Assembly (NCBI GenBank): GCA_965203805.1 | Contig: OZ241917.1 | Coordinates: forward strand, 1,504,001 to 1,568,000 | Direction of reading: 5' to 3' | DNA: 64,000 nucleotides | Source: Candidatus Latescibacterota bacterium | Lineage (GTDB): Bacteria; Latescibacterota; UBA2968; GCA-2709665 | In this document: positions 7,207-62,728 of the stretch, piece after piece | Layout of the letters: each line of letters starts with the position of its first letter | How positions within the stretch are numbered: position 1 is the first letter of the stretch | Position numbers and translations under genes: made by a program | The notes under the pieces: generated by a model | What the model saw: the letters and a program-made list of their open reading frames with translations, nothing else | The model's database searches: none | Told to the model about the DNA's origin: nothing

Positions 7207-8974
7207 GATTACATCTCAGCCTGCCTTGCAAAGCTGACTCTCGTATAACGGGGTTGGCGATACCACAACGAGAGCGGGAGGTGCGCGACAGGGCTACGAC
7301 CGAACGAGCGGAGCCGGTGCACGCCGTTTTGTCAGAAGTTTCTCAGGATGGCACAGCCGACATTTTTTGGCGACGGCGCAGGAAGCGCTGTCACCTTGAT
7401 TGTCCTCTCACCAATAACGAGAATCTACCCGATTTGTACACCCGCCGTCAATTAAATACGCGACTGGCATAGAGTGCGGAAAAGAGATGCTGCAATTGGA
7501 ATCCAGTAAACGGAGATTGGGATATCCGACGGATTAGCTACTTCTGGCTCTCGATCCGCGATCAAAAATGGACGAATTCACAACGGGAAGTTTTACTCTC
7601 GATTACCTTTGGACTTTCTTGGAGGACGCTGCAGATTGTTCGGCTCTACGCGTTCGATTATCGGATCTTGGCTTGTGGTTCGGTTAGCGTCACGATCCCT
7701 CTTGTGCCGTCCACCTCAACTTGGCAACCGTCGACGAACATCTCTAAAATCGAAGGGACGACGTTTACTACAGGCACGCCGCACTCCCGTGCAATCTGGC
7801 TGATATGATTCATCCACATATCCGGGGCGTCCGGTACGATGAGGCCACGCACCCGCAGCAGCACAGAGAACAGAAGCGGCACATGCCAGTTGGTCGATTG
7901 GATCGGCTTCACGAGAACCACCACGTCCCCACTACCAGCGACGTCGTCTCCTTCTTCCAGTGTCTCGATTCGGCGTACGATACCCGTGGTGCGGCCTGGA
8001 CCTGCAGGGCGTCCTCTTATCGCGCTCCCAGCATCTTTTTCGGCTGCATCTGCGTCGGCAGCAACGCGGGTTTTCGGCGAGGATTCTTCCTCCGGTGGCC
8101 TTCCAATGAAGGCCGGCGCAACAAGGCGGTTGGAGTGTTCGTATTCAAGACGCCGTTTCTGCAACAGCCGTCGTCCTGTCGCGATGTCGCCTGTCGCGCC
8201 CATAACTTTCAAATCGTCCACGGTGAAGTACAAGACGTCGTCTATGTCATCGATCAGGCCGGCAGCCAGCAGCACGCCCTGCAAGCTTCGGAAGAGACGC
8301 TTTAACCTCCTGGTCGGAACGTCCGACCGGAGAACACGATGATTCAAAGCCGGTCCCCAGAAAAGAGCCCAGTCGTGAAGCCGCTCAAAACGCGCCAATT
8401 CGGTACGTTGCGAAGCCAAAGTCTCGCGGACCACGGTCACAACTAGCTCGCGCCGCCGGGTTGTCTGTCCTAAAATCCGGCCCACGGATGGGGCTCCTTT
8501 GATTGCATTTCGAACAAGCCTCAGGATATCACACGTGGGGTCGCGGAGAATTTCACAAGGAAACCCGAACTTCCACGGCGGCACCAGGCAAAAGCGCTCG
8601 CAGAAGTCTTCAAGTGCGGCAGCAAACGGGACTTGCATCTCTTTTTTTTGCATGGCACCGATAAACTCGTCCATACTTAGACTCTCGAATCGCTCGCGTT
8701 CTGATTCAAGGAAGCTCTGATTAAGTTACCTATTGGCACGCCATGCAGAAAGTCGTAGAATTGGAGCGTGAGCCGTCGTGTTGTGATTTCTGATGGATCG
8801 ACATAGAACGAGGGGCCCAGGGATGAAACAAATGAGTTTTTCGGATCTGGCGTACAGGACGAAGAAGAAGCAGACGCGCAGGGAACGTTTTCTGAAAGAG
8901 ATGGATGCGGTGTTGCCGTGGGAGATACTGCTTAAATCGATTGAGAGGAAGTATCCGAAACCTGGCAACGGTCG

Positions 8975-9001
8975 CCTGCCTGCCGAGTCGGCGCAGGCAG
9001 G
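8975..9001. repeat. Hairpin element, 27 bp, in frame
   Basis: CCTGCCTGCCGAGTCGGCGCAGGCAGG; removal restores GNGRRP. Confidence 0.92.
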
Positions 9002-9111
9002 TCGTCCGATCGGTGCGGAGGTGATGCTGCGTATCTACTTTATGCAACAATGGTATGGATTGAGCGATCCGGGAATGGAAGACAGTCTCTACGACGTGGA
9101 GTCGATGCGTC

Positions 9112-9130
9112 CCTGCCTGCTGCAGGCAGG
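9112..9130. repeat. Hairpin element, 19 bp, frameshifting
   Basis: CCTGCCTGCTGCAGGCAGG; removal restores ESMRRFAGV. Confidence 0.92.
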
Positions 9131-9666
9131 GCTTTGCGGGTGTGAACATCAACGGCGTACCTGATGAGACGACGATCTGCAAATTCCGTCACTTTCTGGA
9201 GCACCATGGGTTGACGGAAGCGTTGTTTCGGCAAACGAAGCGCTACTTGTCCAGGCGGGGATTGATCGTGAACGAAGGCACGATCGTGGATGCCACGATC
9301 ATTCACGCGCCTTCTTCGACGAAGAACAAGGATCGGAAACGGGATCCTGAAATGGCCAGCACGAAGAAGGGCAACACGTGGCATTTCGGCATGAAGGCGC
9401 ACGTGGGCGCGGATGTGAAGGGACGGGTGCACAGTGTGGTGACCACCCCCGCTTCGGTGCATGATTCGCAGGCGATGGATGCCTGTCTGCACGGAAAAGA
9501 AAAGACCATCTACGGCGACAAGGCCTATGCGGATCAGACGCGAAAAGAACGGGCCGAAGCCAACGACGTGGAATGGCGAGTGCTTCGCAAGGCCCGCCGG
9601 GGCAAGCGGCTCAACTGCGCGGATGTTTCGTTCAACAAGAAGAGCAATCGCACGCGCGCACGGGTC

Positions 9667-9702
9667 CCTGCCTGTGCGTGCTGTCTCACGCACGCAGACA
9701 GG
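9667..9702. repeat. Hairpin element, 36 bp, in frame
   Basis: CCTGCCTGTGCGTGCTGTCTCACGCACGCAGACAGG; removal restores RARVEHPF. Confidence 0.92.
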
Positions 9703-11830
9703 GAACATCCCTTTGGGATCATCAAACACCTGTGGGGCTACCGAAAGGTCAGGTATCGCGGTCTGGCGAAGAATACGGCGCATCTGTTCACCTTGTTTGC
9801 CTTGGCTAACTTCCATATGGCACGTCAGGAACTGGCTACTACATAGGCACCCGTGCCTCCAATTCGGACGCTGGCGGCCAAAATGGCCGGCACCGAGCGC
9901 ATCCGGGGCCGGAATCACCCGTGCAAACCCGAAAGATGACGACCCTCTCAACATAAACAGCCTCCGAAACGACCCATAAGTTACAACTTGCTCATTCCCT
10001 CTGGTTGATCAGAGGTTCCTCAAGCAGTTTCGCCATCTTCTCCGCTTCTGCCATCAATACGTGGGGCAAATAGGGATCCAACGCGGGGTGATGGCCAAGC
10101 GTCAGGTCGTTGACATCGACATTGGGCGTATGTTTGTCCACAAAGTCATTCAACAGGTTCCGGCAGTGATGGGCCAGAAACTGAGAAGGTCCCGAAGTGT
10201 CACCGAGGAGGCTCCACGCCTCCTCCCGTACCCACAGGATTGCGTCAATTGCTCGTTCTAGCGTTCTTTCCTCGTTCTCCAGGCGGACTGCCTTTGTTTC
10301 TACAGCGGTAATCCTCGTGTTCATGCTGTGCAAGAGTTCGGACCGCATTTGAGGTTCGTATTCGACGAGATACTGTTCCAGCTCTTCGGGAGGCATATGT
10401 GGCCATGGGTCTTTTCCCTGAACCAGATAGCGATGTCCGTGAAAGTCCATCTCGGCAACGTACTTTCGGTGGCAAGGCGTCTTGACGGGTCCCACCTCAA
10501 GTGAGCGACTGTACCTCTCTGTAATCAGCTTATCACGGTAGAACGGCAGGGTTACCGTCACATCATCCCTTTTGAATGGGAAATTCCATTTCTTGGGGGA
10601 CCGCCACGTCATATCCGCCAAGTGCGGTGGCAGGTGATGTGGAAAGAAGGCCGGCATTGCCGTGATTGGCCTTACCTGTACGACGTAGATGCTTTCCCCT
10701 ACGACCACCCACTCAACGTCGACACGTGTATCAAAGACCCGGTCGATCTGCAGACCTACCTGAGCGATTTGTCTCGCAATATGGTCGCTCAGTGACGGTT
10801 CGCGCTGCTGATCTGAAGGGATGTCAATATTGTCAATGCCGCTGACACCCGGGATCAAGGCGTTTTTCTTCGTCGAAATGTCTCGACCCATGATATCTCC
10901 CGTATTCCATTCAAACAGGAAACGGTCAACTGGAATTTGGCCGGTAGACGTCATCAGATCGCGAGCCAGACCGAAGGACGACTCCAAAACGAACCGCCAC
11001 GGATTTCCCGTCAGTGGGTCTGCGGTGAACAGTACGCCGGCGCTATCGGCTGGTAGGAGTGACTGAACGAGGACGGCCATAGCGTCCGGCTCAGGCTCAA
11101 TGCCCATTTTCCGTTCGTATTCGAGTGCGAGTGGCACCCAGGCAGCACACCAGCACTTTTTAATCGCATGCAGAAGTTCATCGAGCGCTCGGATGCCAAG
11201 GAAACTCTCATAAACGCCCGCAAAGCTCGCACGGACCGAGTCCTCGTTATTGGTTGAAGAACGCACGGCCAATCCATAGGGAGCATTTGCAAATAGCCCT
11301 TCGGCAAACGGCGCAATCGCGTCGATTAAGGGTCGTGGGAATGAAGCTGCCAGTAGTCTTGGTAGAAATGCCTGATAATTCACAACACGTGCAGAATGTG
11401 TCAGACCCCTGGAACACTGAATGAGTCTTCGTACATGATTAGAAAGGTCGGATCGTGCAAGAAACAGGTTAAGTGCGTTCCGGGTGATTATAAATCCTGG
11501 AGGCACGTGGAATCCGTGTTCAATGGTCTTGCCAAGATTTGCCGATTTTGCGCCGACTAAGGAAGATTTCAGCCCAGGTTGAAGTTGGATGACCAGCTTA
11601 CCCGAATGAGAATTTCGAGGCATATTTTCGCACCGTTCCTTTCCACCGCCCTGACACAAAAAAGGATGCGCACAGGACGACATAATCGTGAGGTAAGTTT
11701 ATCTCACGGGTTATATCAGCCTATCCGCACCCTTGAGATCATCAAAAGTGCTATGGACGGCAGGATTTTATTGTTGGTGTAATATAGGAAAAACGCCCCG
11801 GCACGTCAAATGTAGTACAGGGCGTTGTTA

Positions 11831-34479: not shown

Positions 34480-35150
34480 TGCGCTGAGCCTGTTAAAGGG
34501 TCGGGGAATGGATACGAAGCGCGGCATTTCGACAAGCTCAATGAACGCGCTTCTTACCGCCAGGGAAAAGGCGCACGGGTCTCGGATGCATCTCACGGAG
34601 GGTTGCCGGCCAGCATGTCACCCTAGACGACGTACAAAATCCGTATCGATACGTGGTCATTGCTTGCGTTGAGCCTGTCGAAACGGCTTGTCGAAATGCC
34701 CGTATTACAGAGTCCCATCGACATGCACGCCGCCTCGGCAAGACCTTCTGGGCGCTAACGTGCCGCCTTTAAGGCTCGGGACACGTTCAAATCACGCTGG
34801 TGTGAACCGATGCCGCAGCAGATCCTTCGTCAGCCGGCCTGCCAATGATGCTCCGGCAGGCCCGACCGCTTCTTCAGGATGACAGTTTGGGCTAACGAAT
34901 GACAGATTCATTTCAACGATGGCTATTGCAAAACATGTCATTCTGAGCGGAGCGAAGAATCTCCCGTCTTCTCAGCTTGACGTGCGGCGGAAGCCTTCAC
35001 CGGCCCATATGCGCGGAGGCCTGGTCTCCCTGCCGGCGTCCTCACAGTCCGGGCGCACGTCGGCAGACAGGAATGTCTGCCTGCCTGCGCAGCGAACCGC
35101 GCTGCAGGCAGGCCCCACCCTTTCAACGGCTTCTTCAGAATGACAGTTCA
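34480..35150. repeat. Intergenic cluster of REP-like repeats
   Basis: TTCGACA(A/G)GCTCA types, GTCATTCTGAGCGGAGCGAAGAATCT (34937), TTCTTCAG(G/A)ATGACAGTT twice, GGCAGACA-GGAA-TGTCTGCC hairpin. Confidence 0.7.
35080..35112. repeat. Hairpin element, 33 bp, inside a REP-like palindrome
   Basis: CCTGCCTGCGCAGCGAACCGCGCTGCAGGCAGG. Confidence 0.9.
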
Positions 35151-37677: not shown

Positions 37678-38472
37678 CTAAAGCGATTGTCGACGCTTCA
37701 GCAGGAAGATCATTTCGGGCGCGTTCGGCCCTATCGGCTTCCTGTCAAACGACCCGAATTCCCCCACGGTCTCGAGACCGGCGGCGTGGAAAAGCGCTTT
37801 GAGATGAGGATAGGTGTACACGCTCATCCTGAATGGCTCTTCTTCCTCGGACACGACCCGGCCGCCTTCATACAGCCTGAAGATAAACCGCCCGGCGAAA
37901 CCCATGTTGACCGGATCGAATCCATCTTTGACGAAGAATCTCCGGATGGTCCGACCGGTCCCGTCGCCGTCAGGCCATTCCAGTTCCAGGTGTTCCTCGC
38001 CGTCGCCGGATTGAAGCTTGTCGAAGCGGGGATTGAACACGTCAAACGCGAGGACGCCTCCATCCTTCAGGTGTCTCCCGGCGTTTGTCAGCGCCGCCAG
38101 TTGATCTTCCACGGTGTACATATGCTGCATGGGTCTGAATGGAATCACGACCAGGGGGAATTGATCTCCAAGACAAAGGGTCCTGAAATCACCCTCGACA
38201 ACTCGTACCCTGCGTCTGAGACCTGCAGGTTCTTTGGCGAGCTTTGCACGCAGAGCCTCCAACATCGCGCGAGAAGCATCCAGCCCCGTGACGTCAACAC
38301 CCTGCCGCGCAAGCGGCAACGTGATTCTGCCGGTCCCGCAGCCCAGCTCCAGGACAGGCCCGCCATATTCCCCGGCCAGGTCCAGATAGAAGTCTCTGTC
38401 AACCAGATCTACCTTCGTACTGTATGCGGCGTCGTAGTGCTTCGCCGCCAGACTGTAGGCATCATCAATCAT
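37678..38472 (-). CDS. Class I SAM-dependent methyltransferase
   Basis: VLELGCGTGR. Confidence 0.92.
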   Translation of the reverse strand: MIDDAYSLAAKHYDAAYSTKVDLVDRDFYLDLAGEYGGPVLELGCGTGRITLPLARQGVDVTGLDASRAMLEALRAKLAKEPAGLRRRVRVVEGDFRTLCLGDQFPLVVIPFRPMQHMYTVEDQLAALTNAGRHLKDGGVLAFDVFNPRFDKLQSGDGEEHLELEWPDGDGTGRTIRRFFVKDGFDPVNMGFAGRFIFRLYEGGRVVSEEEEPFRMSVYTYPHLKALFHAAGLETVGEFGSFDRKPIGPNAPEMIFLLKRRQSL

Positions 38473-39302
38473 CGCGAGGTTCCGATCGCCTTCTCCGGAC
38501 CAACCAGTTTCTCCGTCAATTCGATCGCTGACTGGTAAGCATCCGCAAGGAATTCGGATGGAGCTTGAGCGCTATTCTGGGGAACCGCCTCAATTATAAT
38601 CGGTCCCTGACGGGATTCGGAATATGCTCTCGAAACGGCATCCCAATCGACAATTCCCCTCATCGGCAACCAGTGAACGTCGCCATGGCCGTCCGTATCC
38701 GAGAAGTGGGTCGTGAGAAGACGATGTGCCCATTTCTCGAGCACGGCGCCGGGAGCATCGGAATACAGGAAGTCGTGTGAACTATCGTAGCACAAGCCGA
38801 GGTTCGCCAGGGGAAGCTCAGTCAAAATGAAATCAACGCGATTGGGCACCCTTGTATTCTCCAGAGCCAGCGCGACCCCGCACTTTGCCGCCTCCTCGCC
38901 CAACCGCCGGAGAATCTCCAGGCCTTCCTCACAAGGCGGAGGCGGCGATGGCCCCTTCGTTACGTGAAGCACGATGCGGGAAATGGAATGCCGGCTGCAG
39001 TACTCAATCAGCCTGAGATGTTCGTCTGCCAGCCGGTCCCGTTCGCTGGGCCGATCGGACCAGAGAGCATTCGCGTTGTCGTATGGCGCGTGGACGTGAT
39101 CGACGGCGAGCCCGGCATCTGCGGCCATTCCCGGCATTTCGTGGGCACGACCCGATGCAACCAGGGGTTCTTTGTTGCCCATCCACAGAGATGTGTGACT
39201 GAAACCACTCTGCCTGATCAGACTCAAGCGTTCAGCCAGAGGCAGGTCGTAGCCGAACCAGGAAAATATGCCGAGAGGGGCCAGGGCGGCAAAAGTCGTC
39301 AT
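38469..39302 (-). CDS. Sugar-phosphate isomerase/epimerase (AP-endonuclease-2 TIM barrel) family
   Basis: HVHAP, ALEN, YDSSH, THFSD..DVH; start MTTFAA. Confidence 0.88.
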   Translation of the reverse strand: MTTFAALAPLGIFSWFGYDLPLAERLSLIRQSGFSHTSLWMGNKEPLVASGRAHEMPGMAADAGLAVDHVHAPYDNANALWSDRPSERDRLADEHLRLIEYCSRHSISRIVLHVTKGPSPPPPCEEGLEILRRLGEEAAKCGVALALENTRVPNRVDFILTELPLANLGLCYDSSHDFLYSDAPGAVLEKWAHRLLTTHFSDTDGHGDVHWLPMRGIVDWDAVSRAYSESRQGPIIIEAVPQNSAQAPSEFLADAYQSAIELTEKLVGPEKAIGTSR

Positions 39303-39363
39303 GGATAATTCATCTCTTGATGTTGTACCAAAGGTGAGTTCCGACCGCCCCGGACGCCGGGCG

Positions 39364-39456
39364 CCTGCCTGCGCAGCGTACTGCCTGCCTGTGCGGAGCA
39401 CGCCTGCCTGCGCAGTGCCCTGCGCTGCAGGCAGGCAGACAGGCGCTGCAGGCAGG
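39364..39456. repeat. Three nested hairpin elements (33+27+33 bp) inside a GTAG-type REP
   Basis: Outer 39364-39456, middle 39384-39443, inner 39403-39435. Confidence 0.9.
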
Positions 39457-39565
39457 CCCACAACGGACGCCCCTACAAGTTGGTGAAGAGCGATTCTGTA
39501 AGGAGTATCGCGACGGGTCAACGAGTAGCCGGACATGGGTTTGTTCGCCCGTCGTGACGCTTCTG

Positions 39566-40107
39566 CTATTTGCGGCGCTGTCCCGCAATATACAGGCGTA
39601 GCGCTTTGATCGCCGGAAGATCTACATCTCTCACGGGTGCGCCAGCGTGGTGTTTGTGGAAGTTGACCTTCTCGTCAAGCTGGGCTTCAGCGCTGAGGAT
39701 CGGACAGGATAGGTCGCCCAGTTGCCCCTCCGGCGCACAAAAGGCTCCAGGCGAATACGGCCAGAGGCTACGACGTCTCCGGATTGAGTCCGTTGGAGTA
39801 ACCCAAAACTGACATATTGATCGAGTTTGCAAAACCCAATGTGTTCTTCGGGATGCCGGACTTCCTGTTGGGTATACCCCAACGCACAAAGACAGGCAGA
39901 CACGTCCGGCGCATCTGTCTTCCAAATCGCCCAATCGGCGTCGCCGTGGACGCGCGAGACTTCGTCGAGCAGAAAATCCAGAGCCCAACCCCCGCCAAGC
40001 CAGTGTGGGACCGAACGGGCTTTCAATGCCACATGAATCTCCCTGATCAGCCCAAGCTGGACAGAATTCGGGTCGGCCAGACACTCGATATCTACAGATT
40101 CAGACAT
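39566..40107 (-). pseudogene. ANT(2'')/lincosamide-type nucleotidyltransferase, probable frameshift
   Basis: WLGGGWALD..SRVHGDAD in one frame; C-terminal PGAF..CPILSAEAQL..K in another; switch near 39765. Confidence 0.7.
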
Positions 40108-40192: not shown

Positions 40193-41053
40193 TTATTCTT
40201 CTATCGAACTACAGTTCGAACCCAATACAAAATCCACCTCGGCCAACCAGGTTTGAAAAGTACTGTCAGCAGGCGCACACAGTCCTGATTCATGGAATAT
40301 CAGCCGTTCAAGGAACTTTAACTGAACCATACTCTGCGGGAGCGGACCAGACAAAGGACTCGTTTGTAGATTCAAGTGCTCCAGACGGGAAAGATGACTT
40401 ATTTCCCCCGGCACAGAACCTTCTAATTGACTACCGCCCACAAATAGGTGAGTAAGTCGGCTAAGGTTGGTCAACTCAATCGGGAATGAGCCTGTCAAGG
40501 GATTGGTACCAATCCATAATTTATTCAAATTTGATAGGCTGCTCAATTCAGGAGGGATCGGGCCACTTAACTGATTTTCAGAAAGAAACAAGACGCGAAG
40601 GTCTGGTAACTTGGCCAATTCGGGAGGGATCGGGCCGGTTAACTGATTCTTGTGCAAATAAAGCACTTGGAGTTTATCCAGACCACCGAGTTCCTTCGGT
40701 ATTGAACCTGTCAGATTATTTCCCTGCAGATTTATAGTCACAACTCGATTATTTGACACCACGATACCGTGCCAGGTAGAAATATCACTATCTGTCAACC
40801 AATTGGCTTTGACCCGCCAATTATCTCCGTTCGTCGCGAGATAAAGCGCAATCAACCTATCGCGGTCTGACAAGGGTGGAGAATAAGTAGATCCGAAGAC
40901 TCGAGCAAAGGCTATAAAATCAGCGAAATCGACATCAAAATCACCGTCAAAGTCTCCAGGATACGGTGAACAATTTTCCTGCGCAGAAACCGAACCCACT
41001 ATAAGCACGAACAGAATAAACAAAGTCAATCGTGCCTTCATAGTATCCCCCAA
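40193..41053 (-). CDS. Secreted leucine-rich-repeat protein with EF-hand/dockerin-like motif
   Basis: Signal peptide, GDFDGDFDVDFADF, plant-type LRRs LxLxxNQL(T/S)GPIP; visibly AT-richer than flanks. Confidence 0.92.
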   Translation of the reverse strand: MGDTMKARLTLFILFVLIVGSVSAQENCSPYPGDFDGDFDVDFADFIAFARVFGSTYSPPLSDRDRLIALYLATNGDNWRVKANWLTDSDISTWHGIVVSNNRVVTINLQGNNLTGSIPKELGGLDKLQVLYLHKNQLTGPIPPELAKLPDLRVLFLSENQLSGPIPPELSSLSNLNKLWIGTNPLTGSFPIELTNLSRLTHLFVGGSQLEGSVPGEISHLSRLEHLNLQTSPLSGPLPQSMVQLKFLERLIFHESGLCAPADSTFQTWLAEVDFVLGSNCSSIEE

Positions 41054-62703: not shown

Positions 62704-62728
62704 GGGCACCCACAAGGGACGCCCCTAC
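62704..62728 (-). repeat. GTAG-type REP palindrome (uninterrupted)
   Basis: GGGCACCCACAAGGGACGCCCCTAC. Confidence 0.75.

Follow-up and report, generated by a model that had tools for sequence, protein, structure and literature searches.

How does a 93-nt insert that reads as three hairpins, each lying inside the next, come to sit within the hairpin of a short repeat? The locus, positions 39359-39476 of the window (the whole 64,000-nt stretch analysed here), belongs to a Candidatus Latescibacterota genome of 5,865,457 bp in a single contig with 59% G+C, denoted G000. We think it likely that, in these 118 bp, the hairpin of a GTAG-type REP holds very small (27–33 nt) non-autonomous mobile hairpin elements nested three deep, which would have moved in the manner proposed below.

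Architecture of the nest

The nest is flanked by two minus-strand genes, which are separated by a spacer of 328 nt. The downstream gene (38469-39302), with the nest 57–174 nt upstream of its start codon, encodes a xylose-isomerase-like TIM-barrel protein (PF01261, 72.7 bits), and the upstream gene on the same strand (39631-40107) a nucleotidyltransferase-like protein (PF10706, 34.3 bits).

A 25-nt GTAG-type REP is interrupted after base 5 by 93 nt, and these parse into 33 nt (outer, A2) around 27 nt (middle, B27) around 33 nt (inner, A1); the same 33/27/33 parse had been given in a first-pass annotation made from the letters alone, and it was confirmed base by base. The order on the plus strand is GGGCG / CCTGCCTGCGCAGCGTACTG / CCTGCCTGTGCGGAGCACG / CCTGCCTGCGCAGTGCCCTGCGCTGCAGGCAGG / CAGACAGG / CGCTGCAGGCAGG / CCCACAACGGACGCCCCTAC. 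Thus, the first part of the host REP (39359-39363), GGGCG on the plus strand, corresponds to the 3' end of the REP on the minus strand. It is followed by five pieces delimited by the parse and the element search, namely the 5' 20 nt of the outer element (39364-39383; type A2, loop CGTA), the 5' 19 nt of the middle element (39384-39402; type B, 27-nt variant), the full 33-nt inner element (39403-39435; type A1, loop TGCC), the 3' 8 nt of the middle element (CAGACAGG, 39436-39443) and the 3' 13 nt of the outer element (CGCTGCAGGCAGG, 39444-39456). The second part of the REP, with its GTAG head, closes the structure (39457-39476; GTAGGGGCGTCCGTTGTGGG on the minus strand). Within the outer element, the middle one sits at CTG^CGCTG.

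Joining 39359-39363 to 39457-39476 gives a 25-nt REP of the GTAGGGGCGTCCCTTGTGGGCGCCC family, which has 25 matches in the genome at ≤4 mismatches and 0 in the reversed control. This residue, GGGCGCCCACAACGGACGCCCCTAC, had been described as close to the uninterrupted REP of the host family at 62704-62728 (minus strand); the two differ at 2 of 25 positions. Between the outer and inner elements, the sole difference is the 4-nt loop. The spliced outer 33-mer, CCTGCCTGCGCAGCGTACTGCGCTGCAGGCAGG, has 9 copies in the genome by spliced count, of which 5 are solo loci, mostly in REPs, and the A1 33-mer has 19, spliced hosts included. A 27-mer 1 nt off the middle unit is present in at least 43 uninterrupted copies in the relative G007, among the matches listed. 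In the window, the 12-mer CTGCCTGCGCAG (≤1 mismatch) has 7 occurrences, where shuffling gives 0.35 on average. Folded as single-stranded DNA, the nest forms nested helices at −47.5 kcal/mol (z = −3.2) and the inner A1 element a hairpin at −15.2 kcal/mol (z = −4.0; folded stretch 39402-39434, one base off the element), with hairpin-fold z values of single units ranging from −2.5 to −4.5.

Several relations to other copies in the window had also been drawn. The inner element was said to nearly match 27-60, a solo A1-type copy of 34 nt in reverse orientation; the reverse complement of the latter is indeed identical, save for one extra loop base (33 vs 34 nt). The middle element was likened to the 36-nt B-type copy at 9667-9702, which lies in frame in the transposase ORF of an IS5-family IS, and both 12-nt ends are common to the two. 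Disagreeing with the first-pass annotation, however, we find that the middle element is not in the opposite orientation. It reads like the 9667 copy on the plus strand and, judged by the 2–3-nt bulge, the only asymmetry shared, all three nested elements are co-oriented. One more solo A-type copy, with the loop variant CGAA, occurs at 35080-35112 and abuts the hairpin CAGACAGGAATGTCTG.

An element superfamily with common ends

The outer, middle and inner units are members of a single superfamily, whose 8-nt inverted termini read CCTG[C/T]CTG...CAG[G/A]CAGG. The genome was searched with the regular expression CCTG[CT]CTG ... CAG[GA]CAGG, innermost units being removed iteratively; the termini are thus CCTG...CAGG by definition. 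This returned 262 elements with 94 distinct spliced sequences, as opposed to 2 elements in the reversed, non-complemented genome used as a control. They comprise 227 uninterrupted elements, 30 second-level hosts and 5 third-level hosts, and together make up 0.14% of the genome. Lengths range from 19 to 45 nt, with peaks at 33, 31, 30 and 27 nt and the mode at 33. Counting nested against solo copies genome-wide, as had been proposed, shows that 36 of the 262 elements sit inside another element; by locus, there are 196 solo copies, 25 double nests and 5 triple nests.

What the subfamilies have in common is a 7–8-bp terminal stem, a 2–3-nt bulge on one side, an inner stem of 4–7 bp and a small loop. 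The sequence of the inner stem varies by subfamily yet stays paired (for example GCCGA/TCGGC, GTGCG/CGCAC, GTCC/GGAC and CGCAG/CTGCG).

Two concentrations of copies deserve description in their own right. First, about 45 copies of one 31-nt subfamily, CCTGCCTGCCGAAAAACCACCGCCAGGCAGG, lie within 230 kb (C1, ~3,245,000-3,471,000), each in the same host repeat (cagacctctcccc^gaccctctcct...) and between unrelated genes. Second, the IS5-family IS at window 8709-10020 (~1312 bp) has five genome copies with 99.9–100% identity, all of which carry the same three CCTG elements within the transposase frame. Two of these, of 27 and 36 nt, are in frame; the third, a 19-nt palindrome, causes a frameshift. 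Their acquisition apparently came before the spread of the IS.

Distribution, gain and loss among relatives

Among 41 relatives, superfamily copies number 190 in the sister species G001, 175 in G000, 139 in G015, 129 in G016, 74 in G011, 34 in G007 and 28 in G008, and many genomes hold 0–3, with 0–1 in the controls. The dominant subfamily differs from genome to genome. A search of 185,579 species genomes for exact matches to the A-type pattern gave 54 loci, every one in a Latescibacterota record, and viral contigs gave 0 matches.

In G001, the nearest relative searched, which was assembled independently, the same nest occupies the orthologous REP between flanking genes that are 87–89% identical. 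The nest is identical at 93/93 positions, the REP at 24/25 and the left spacer at ~40/57, and the right flank diverges within 30 nt. The nest was therefore complete before G000 and G001 split. Its full identity amid ~30% change in the spacer implies either sequence constraint or homogenisation with other copies, for which selection on the hairpins, a recognition constraint combined with re-copying, or gene conversion among copies may be responsible. In G012, G013, G008 and G002, the corresponding spacer contains other genes and neither the REP nor the nest, and hence no intermediate allele.

Intermediate alleles with 0, 1 or 2 elements had been named as a way of following the build-up, and they were sought in reads and relatives. 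No one- or two-element allele was found at this locus. A contig from X6 joins 39362 to 39456, which corresponds to an empty REP; it comes from a relative of ~93% identity and its short side is 24 nt. Skips of 60 and 33 nt in X4 and X6 were considered as alleles and rejected, their short sides or unlike loose ends marking them as probable paralogues. The runs that hold the locus are labelled as sponge, marine and coral metagenomes.

Pairs of differing alleles came from other loci. The 150-nt flanks of the 54 A-type copies from other species were searched by BLAST against this genome, and collinear cases were aligned. At L046, a 33-nt A1 element in G001 is absent from the orthologous site in G000. 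At L067 and L054, a 33-nt A2 element in G015, a member of another genus, is absent in G000, the flanks being conserved and apparently coding. At L070, the A1 element is solo in G001, whereas the same A1 in G000 contains a 33-nt B element nested at CAGCG^CAG. In all four cases, the alleles differ by the element alone and no target duplication is seen. Such pairs fit insertion and precise excision alike. They bear out the earlier claim that these are discrete mobile units, in that orthologous sites differ by exactly one 33-nt element, with L070 providing a one- versus two-element pair.

Target choice and orientation

Insertion junctions read G^C in 98 of 164 unique contexts, the exact bond being ambiguous by 1–3 nt because the element begins with CC and ends with GG. 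The first-pass annotation held that the elements prefer hairpin-forming targets. As a preference this stands: besides the nested copies already counted, 30 of 176 outermost junctions fall in a perfect hairpin of at least 6 bp, compared with 119 of 3000 random G^C sites (odds ratio 5.0, p = 2e-10). As an exclusive rule it does not, since the other 146 of 176 lie outside any perfect hairpin. A fold-energy test on 50-nt joined outermost flanks gave only a weak difference (−14.5 vs −13.3 kcal/mol, p = 0.016), and pairs spanning the junction were not enriched (93/176 vs 681/1000). An uninterrupted paralogue, which means that the host is itself a repeat, was detected with blastn-short for 83 of 149 outermost insertion contexts, as against 33 of 300 random G^C sites. 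In the ~30-copy host REP family, about 8 copies are occupied, at GGG^CGCCC or GTAGGGG^C.

Within the superfamily, the choice of site is strict. B enters A at CAGCG^CAG in 12/12 nests, at the same bond and in the same relative orientation, and the A-B junction over 22 family genomes is co-oriented in 21 cases, anti-oriented in 0 and of another kind in 2; the events behind the 12/12 and 21/0 counts are partly non-independent, as a nest seen repeatedly may stem from the copying of a single composite. A1 enters B at TACG^CACG (3 nests) or CACG^CAGA (2 nests, including the present one), and a third subfamily pair uses CCTGCCTGCG^CC in 10/10. Self-nesting follows from these rules, because it is the elements' own conserved 5' part that supplies the preferred bonds. 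Thus, each new copy adds a fresh ...TGCG^C-like target, leading to Russian-doll build-up.

Alternative origins of the nest

Having described the nest as the work of mobile elements, we would note that its assembly need not have taken place here. The outer and middle elements, or the whole 93 nt, might have been assembled elsewhere and have entered the REP ready-made through the outer ends, in one or two local events. We take this seriously, while leaning somewhat against it. The composite A2::B27 is found in three host repeats, namely this REP, another REP at 5286112 (a 1-nt variant, with the middle element at the same bond) and a repeat on contig C5 of G001; moreover, every exact or 1-nt-variant copy of the middle 27-mer in G000 and G001 lies within an A2. 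For these two reasons, the outer-plus-middle composite, with its outer ends intact, probably moves as one unit. X6 adds a form that lacks only the inner 33 nt, besides the contig joining the REP halves without all 93 nt. On the other hand, a single bond in A1 and A2 hosts has received B variants of 27, 30 and 33 nt, so this site has been hit repeatedly; the bond of B that an inner A1 copy enters is one of two, depending on the nest; and L070 records a B element gained or lost inside a resident A1. The first-pass annotation spoke of sequential insertions. Of this, the succession of events is kept, but not the requirement that all took place here: in the preferred reading, the history of the locus would include three or more insertion events, some of which may have happened elsewhere, given that the nest predates the species split and that the outer-plus-middle composite exists elsewhere.

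A second possibility is that the hairpins are functional sites, be it RNA stem-loops or sites for protein binding or recombination, which are not mobile and have been copied by gene conversion or repeat recombination, the nest being a product of this copying. Several observations would agree with it, including the 93/93 identity of the nest between species whose flanking spacer is ~70% identical, the persistence of identical 33-mers over three genera, the fact that more than half of the insertion contexts are repeats and hence possible recombination substrates, and the location of elements mainly outside long ORFs (65 of 226 in frames of at least 300 aa, vs 745 of 1000 random positions). Nevertheless, we judge it improbable. 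The precise 33-nt presence/absence at L067 and L054 occurs in unique, apparently coding flanks without a homologous repeat; copies lie within an IS5 transposase ORF; and copy numbers vary from 0 to 190 among congeners. A search against Rfam gave sub-threshold miRNA-like hairpin matches only, no family reaching the threshold, and a promoter and terminator scan found no terminator and no terminator-like T-run, its one weak promoter-like site being outside the nest.

Third, the 93 nt might be of local origin, through duplication, replication slippage or palindrome amplification of one hairpin. This appears very improbable. The outer and inner elements differ in the 4-nt loop only and the region holds three direct repeats at 19–20 nt spacing, as such a process might leave behind. 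Yet the order is strictly nested (LLLRRR) instead of tandem, the middle unit comes from another subfamily, each unit type exists alone and uninterrupted elsewhere, and the same unit types recur in other triple nests, joined at other bonds. Genome-wide, nested LLRR patterns outnumber tandem LRLR patterns 20 to 3. The earlier assertion that these are not slippage products is thus upheld, and a simple local duplication, which had been named as a possible refutation, is contradicted.

Finally, an artefact of the long-read MAG assembly, the other refutation that had been named, has next to no chance of being right: short-read contigs do end within the nest, where k-mer depth is 20–100x that of the flanks, as expected of any repeat, but the identical nest is present at the orthologous site of the independently assembled sister species, and overlapping Logan unitigs from X16 and X1 (two studies; spans 39150-39391, 39366-39427, 39408-39458 and 39429-39700) tile 39150-39700 over every junction with 0–2 differences.

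Candidate enzyme and proposed mode of movement

Returning to nested mobile elements as the preferred reading, we propose that the elements move as folded single-stranded hairpins, and that a protein acting in trans may cut and rejoin them by reading the conserved terminal stem. Precise gain or loss without duplication, a strand-specific target and a conserved folded end would all point to a hairpin-recognising single-strand nuclease/ligase of this kind. The best candidate may be an HUH/Y1 enzyme of the RAYT kind, two of which are encoded in the genome (104 and 91 bits; NCBIfam cut-off 80).

The link between RAYTs and the elements is only suggestive. Element counts are higher in RAYT-positive genomes (Mann-Whitney p = 0.004), and a RAYT above the cut-off is present in 6/12 element-rich versus 3/29 element-poor genomes (p = 0.011), shared ancestry being ignored in both tests. 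There are counter-examples on either side. G015 has 139 elements and no RAYT above the cut-off, whereas G017, G018 and G020 have a RAYT and 0–2 elements. Furthermore, RAYT 1 (4533512-4534117) is flanked by its own GTAG REPs, GTAGGGCAGGGATGCCCTCG, and RAYT 2 (domain at 4547925-4548248) by repeats of the GGGAGCGCGGACG type; each RAYT has one CCTG element nearby, only as an insert within the RAYT-flanking repeats.

The two RAYT regions show further features. At C1:4533200-4534400 (L029), the 201-aa RAYT lies amid arrays of the second GTAG REP family, GTAGGGCAGGGATGCCCTCG, and this arrangement is a classical REPtron; CCTG elements enter the loop of that family at GGA^TG at several loci. At C1:4546926-4550684 (partly covered by L030), a stop-free frame of 1252 codons starts like a DUF1156-type DNA methylase and contains, in frame, a REP-RAYT-REP module together with a 27-nt CCTG element. 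RAYT matches within frames of 1203–1441 codons also occur in G008, G011 (two) and G016 (two), which suggests a conserved RAYT insertion within a large gene.

Other searches for an enzyme gave no lead. Hits to the generic Y1_Tnp profile showed no pattern with element counts. No CCTG termini lie within 1.5 kb of the IS200-like genes in G015, G016, G017 or G020. The genes between neighbouring elements, inspected as ORF translations, are ordinary genes and IS transposases, with no candidate enzyme among them. Replication-strand bias was absent for the A type alone and for all oriented elements (odds ratio ~1); on replichores defined by GC skew, orientations are 46:31 vs 24:17 (Fisher p = 1), a rough test in a MAG with unequal replichores. 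The cumulative GC skew itself has its minimum at ~4.43 Mb and its maximum at ~0.82 Mb, dividing the circular-looking single contig into very unequal replichores of ~2.3 and 3.6 Mb.

Relation to known elements and implications

The spread of REP-like and smaller palindromic repeats is largely inferred, and direct evidence of discrete insertions is scarce. The closest known kinds for the CCTG family are REP/REPIN sequences and cyanobacterial SDRs, from which it stands out by its shared ends with free interiors, its strict site and orientation rules and its frequent self-nesting.

REPs and REPINs, in the parts of the literature consulted, are 20–40-nt imperfect palindromes, mostly extragenic, clustered and present in tens to hundreds of copies, which vary between related genomes and can sit within other palindromes or ORFs (PMC3733652, PMC3116915). 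CCTG elements are likewise short imperfect palindromes in 262 dispersed copies, the host of the nest is a GTAG REP, and the genome has two RAYTs. Unlike REPs, however, they carry no GTAG/CGTC tag; their conserved part is the symmetric 8-nt terminus, flanked by G and C. Nor do they flank RAYT genes as cognate REPs do, and their many subfamilies have unrelated interiors behind the same ends, with prominent three-level self-nesting.

The SDRs of the Nostocaceae, the subject of Elhai et al. 2008, are reportedly 21–27-nt dispersed hairpin-forming repeats that are mobile by presence/absence and insert into palindromic sites and into each other. By that description, CCTG elements resemble them in being very small hairpins, mobile by presence/absence and inserted in one another. 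They differ in host (Latescibacterota vs Cyanobacteria) and in their longer units (19–37 nt, mode 33), and the sequences are probably unrelated.

With IS200/IS605 elements and their HUH Y1 TnpA, the likeness concerns the way of working only: hairpin ends, precise gain or loss without duplication, and a fixed orientation at a short target. In contrast, CCTG elements are 30 nt long, consist of a single hairpin, have no gene and show no lagging-strand bias, and the IS200-like genes in relatives are not flanked by them. MITEs are summarised, in the portion of the review seen, as being 70–300 bp long, with target-site duplications, and derived from ISs with matching ends (PMC3733652). CCTG elements are similarly non-autonomous, with terminal inverted repeats and many copies, but they are shorter than 70 bp, leave no duplication at empty sites and have no parent IS that we could find; IS5- and IS1380-like ISs carry them internally and not as ends. 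The same portion deals with RPEs and intragenic REPs, palindromic repeats for which an in-frame position within genes is possible (PMC3733652). Comparable cases here are the 27- and 36-nt copies in frame in the IS5 transposase and the 33-nt indels in apparently coding flanks. RPEs are longer, nesting is not mentioned for them in the text consulted (PMC3733652), and most CCTG copies lie outside long ORFs. In the main texts consulted, among them PMC3116915, PMC3733652, PMC5861425 and PMC12993501, we did not find these elements described in Latescibacterota; in the portion of PMC12993501 searched, 'palindrom' occurs for CRISPR only, and there is no mention of transposon, hairpin or extragenic.

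A bolder proposal, to which we give not quite an even chance, is that these elements form a previously undescribed superfamily of ultra-small (19–37 nt) self-targeting hairpin transposons, defined only by an 8-bp terminal stem and a bulge, whose interiors diversify by compensatory change. They would be moved by non-classical REP-RAYT machinery, that is, a RAYT acting on non-GTAG substrates or another enzyme, and nests and composites would themselves be mobile. The family would build nests and mobile composites because each copy recreates its own preferred target.

If true, this would offer a minimal system for how hairpin DNA is recognised, cut and pasted. Dozens of nests have a known uninterrupted host, from which the insertion bond can be read to within 1–3 nt. 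Natural experiments are provided by filled and empty orthologous sites, by the fixed orientation and by subfamilies in which nothing but the terminal stem, the bulge and the pairing is retained. The recognition signal is accordingly small, and could be tested in vitro with the two RAYTs of the genome. There are practical consequences as well. Inserts of 30 nt break short-read assemblies, can sit in frame in genes, and alter the intergenic hairpin landscapes of abundant sponge symbionts. In this last connection, a minor observation on the neighbourhood of the nest may be added. The minus-strand ORF at window 40193-41053 encodes, as judged from its translation, a secreted-looking leucine-rich-repeat protein with an N-terminal dockerin-like GDFDGDFDVDFADF motif. 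Eukaryote-like repeat proteins of this sort are often reported from sponge symbionts.
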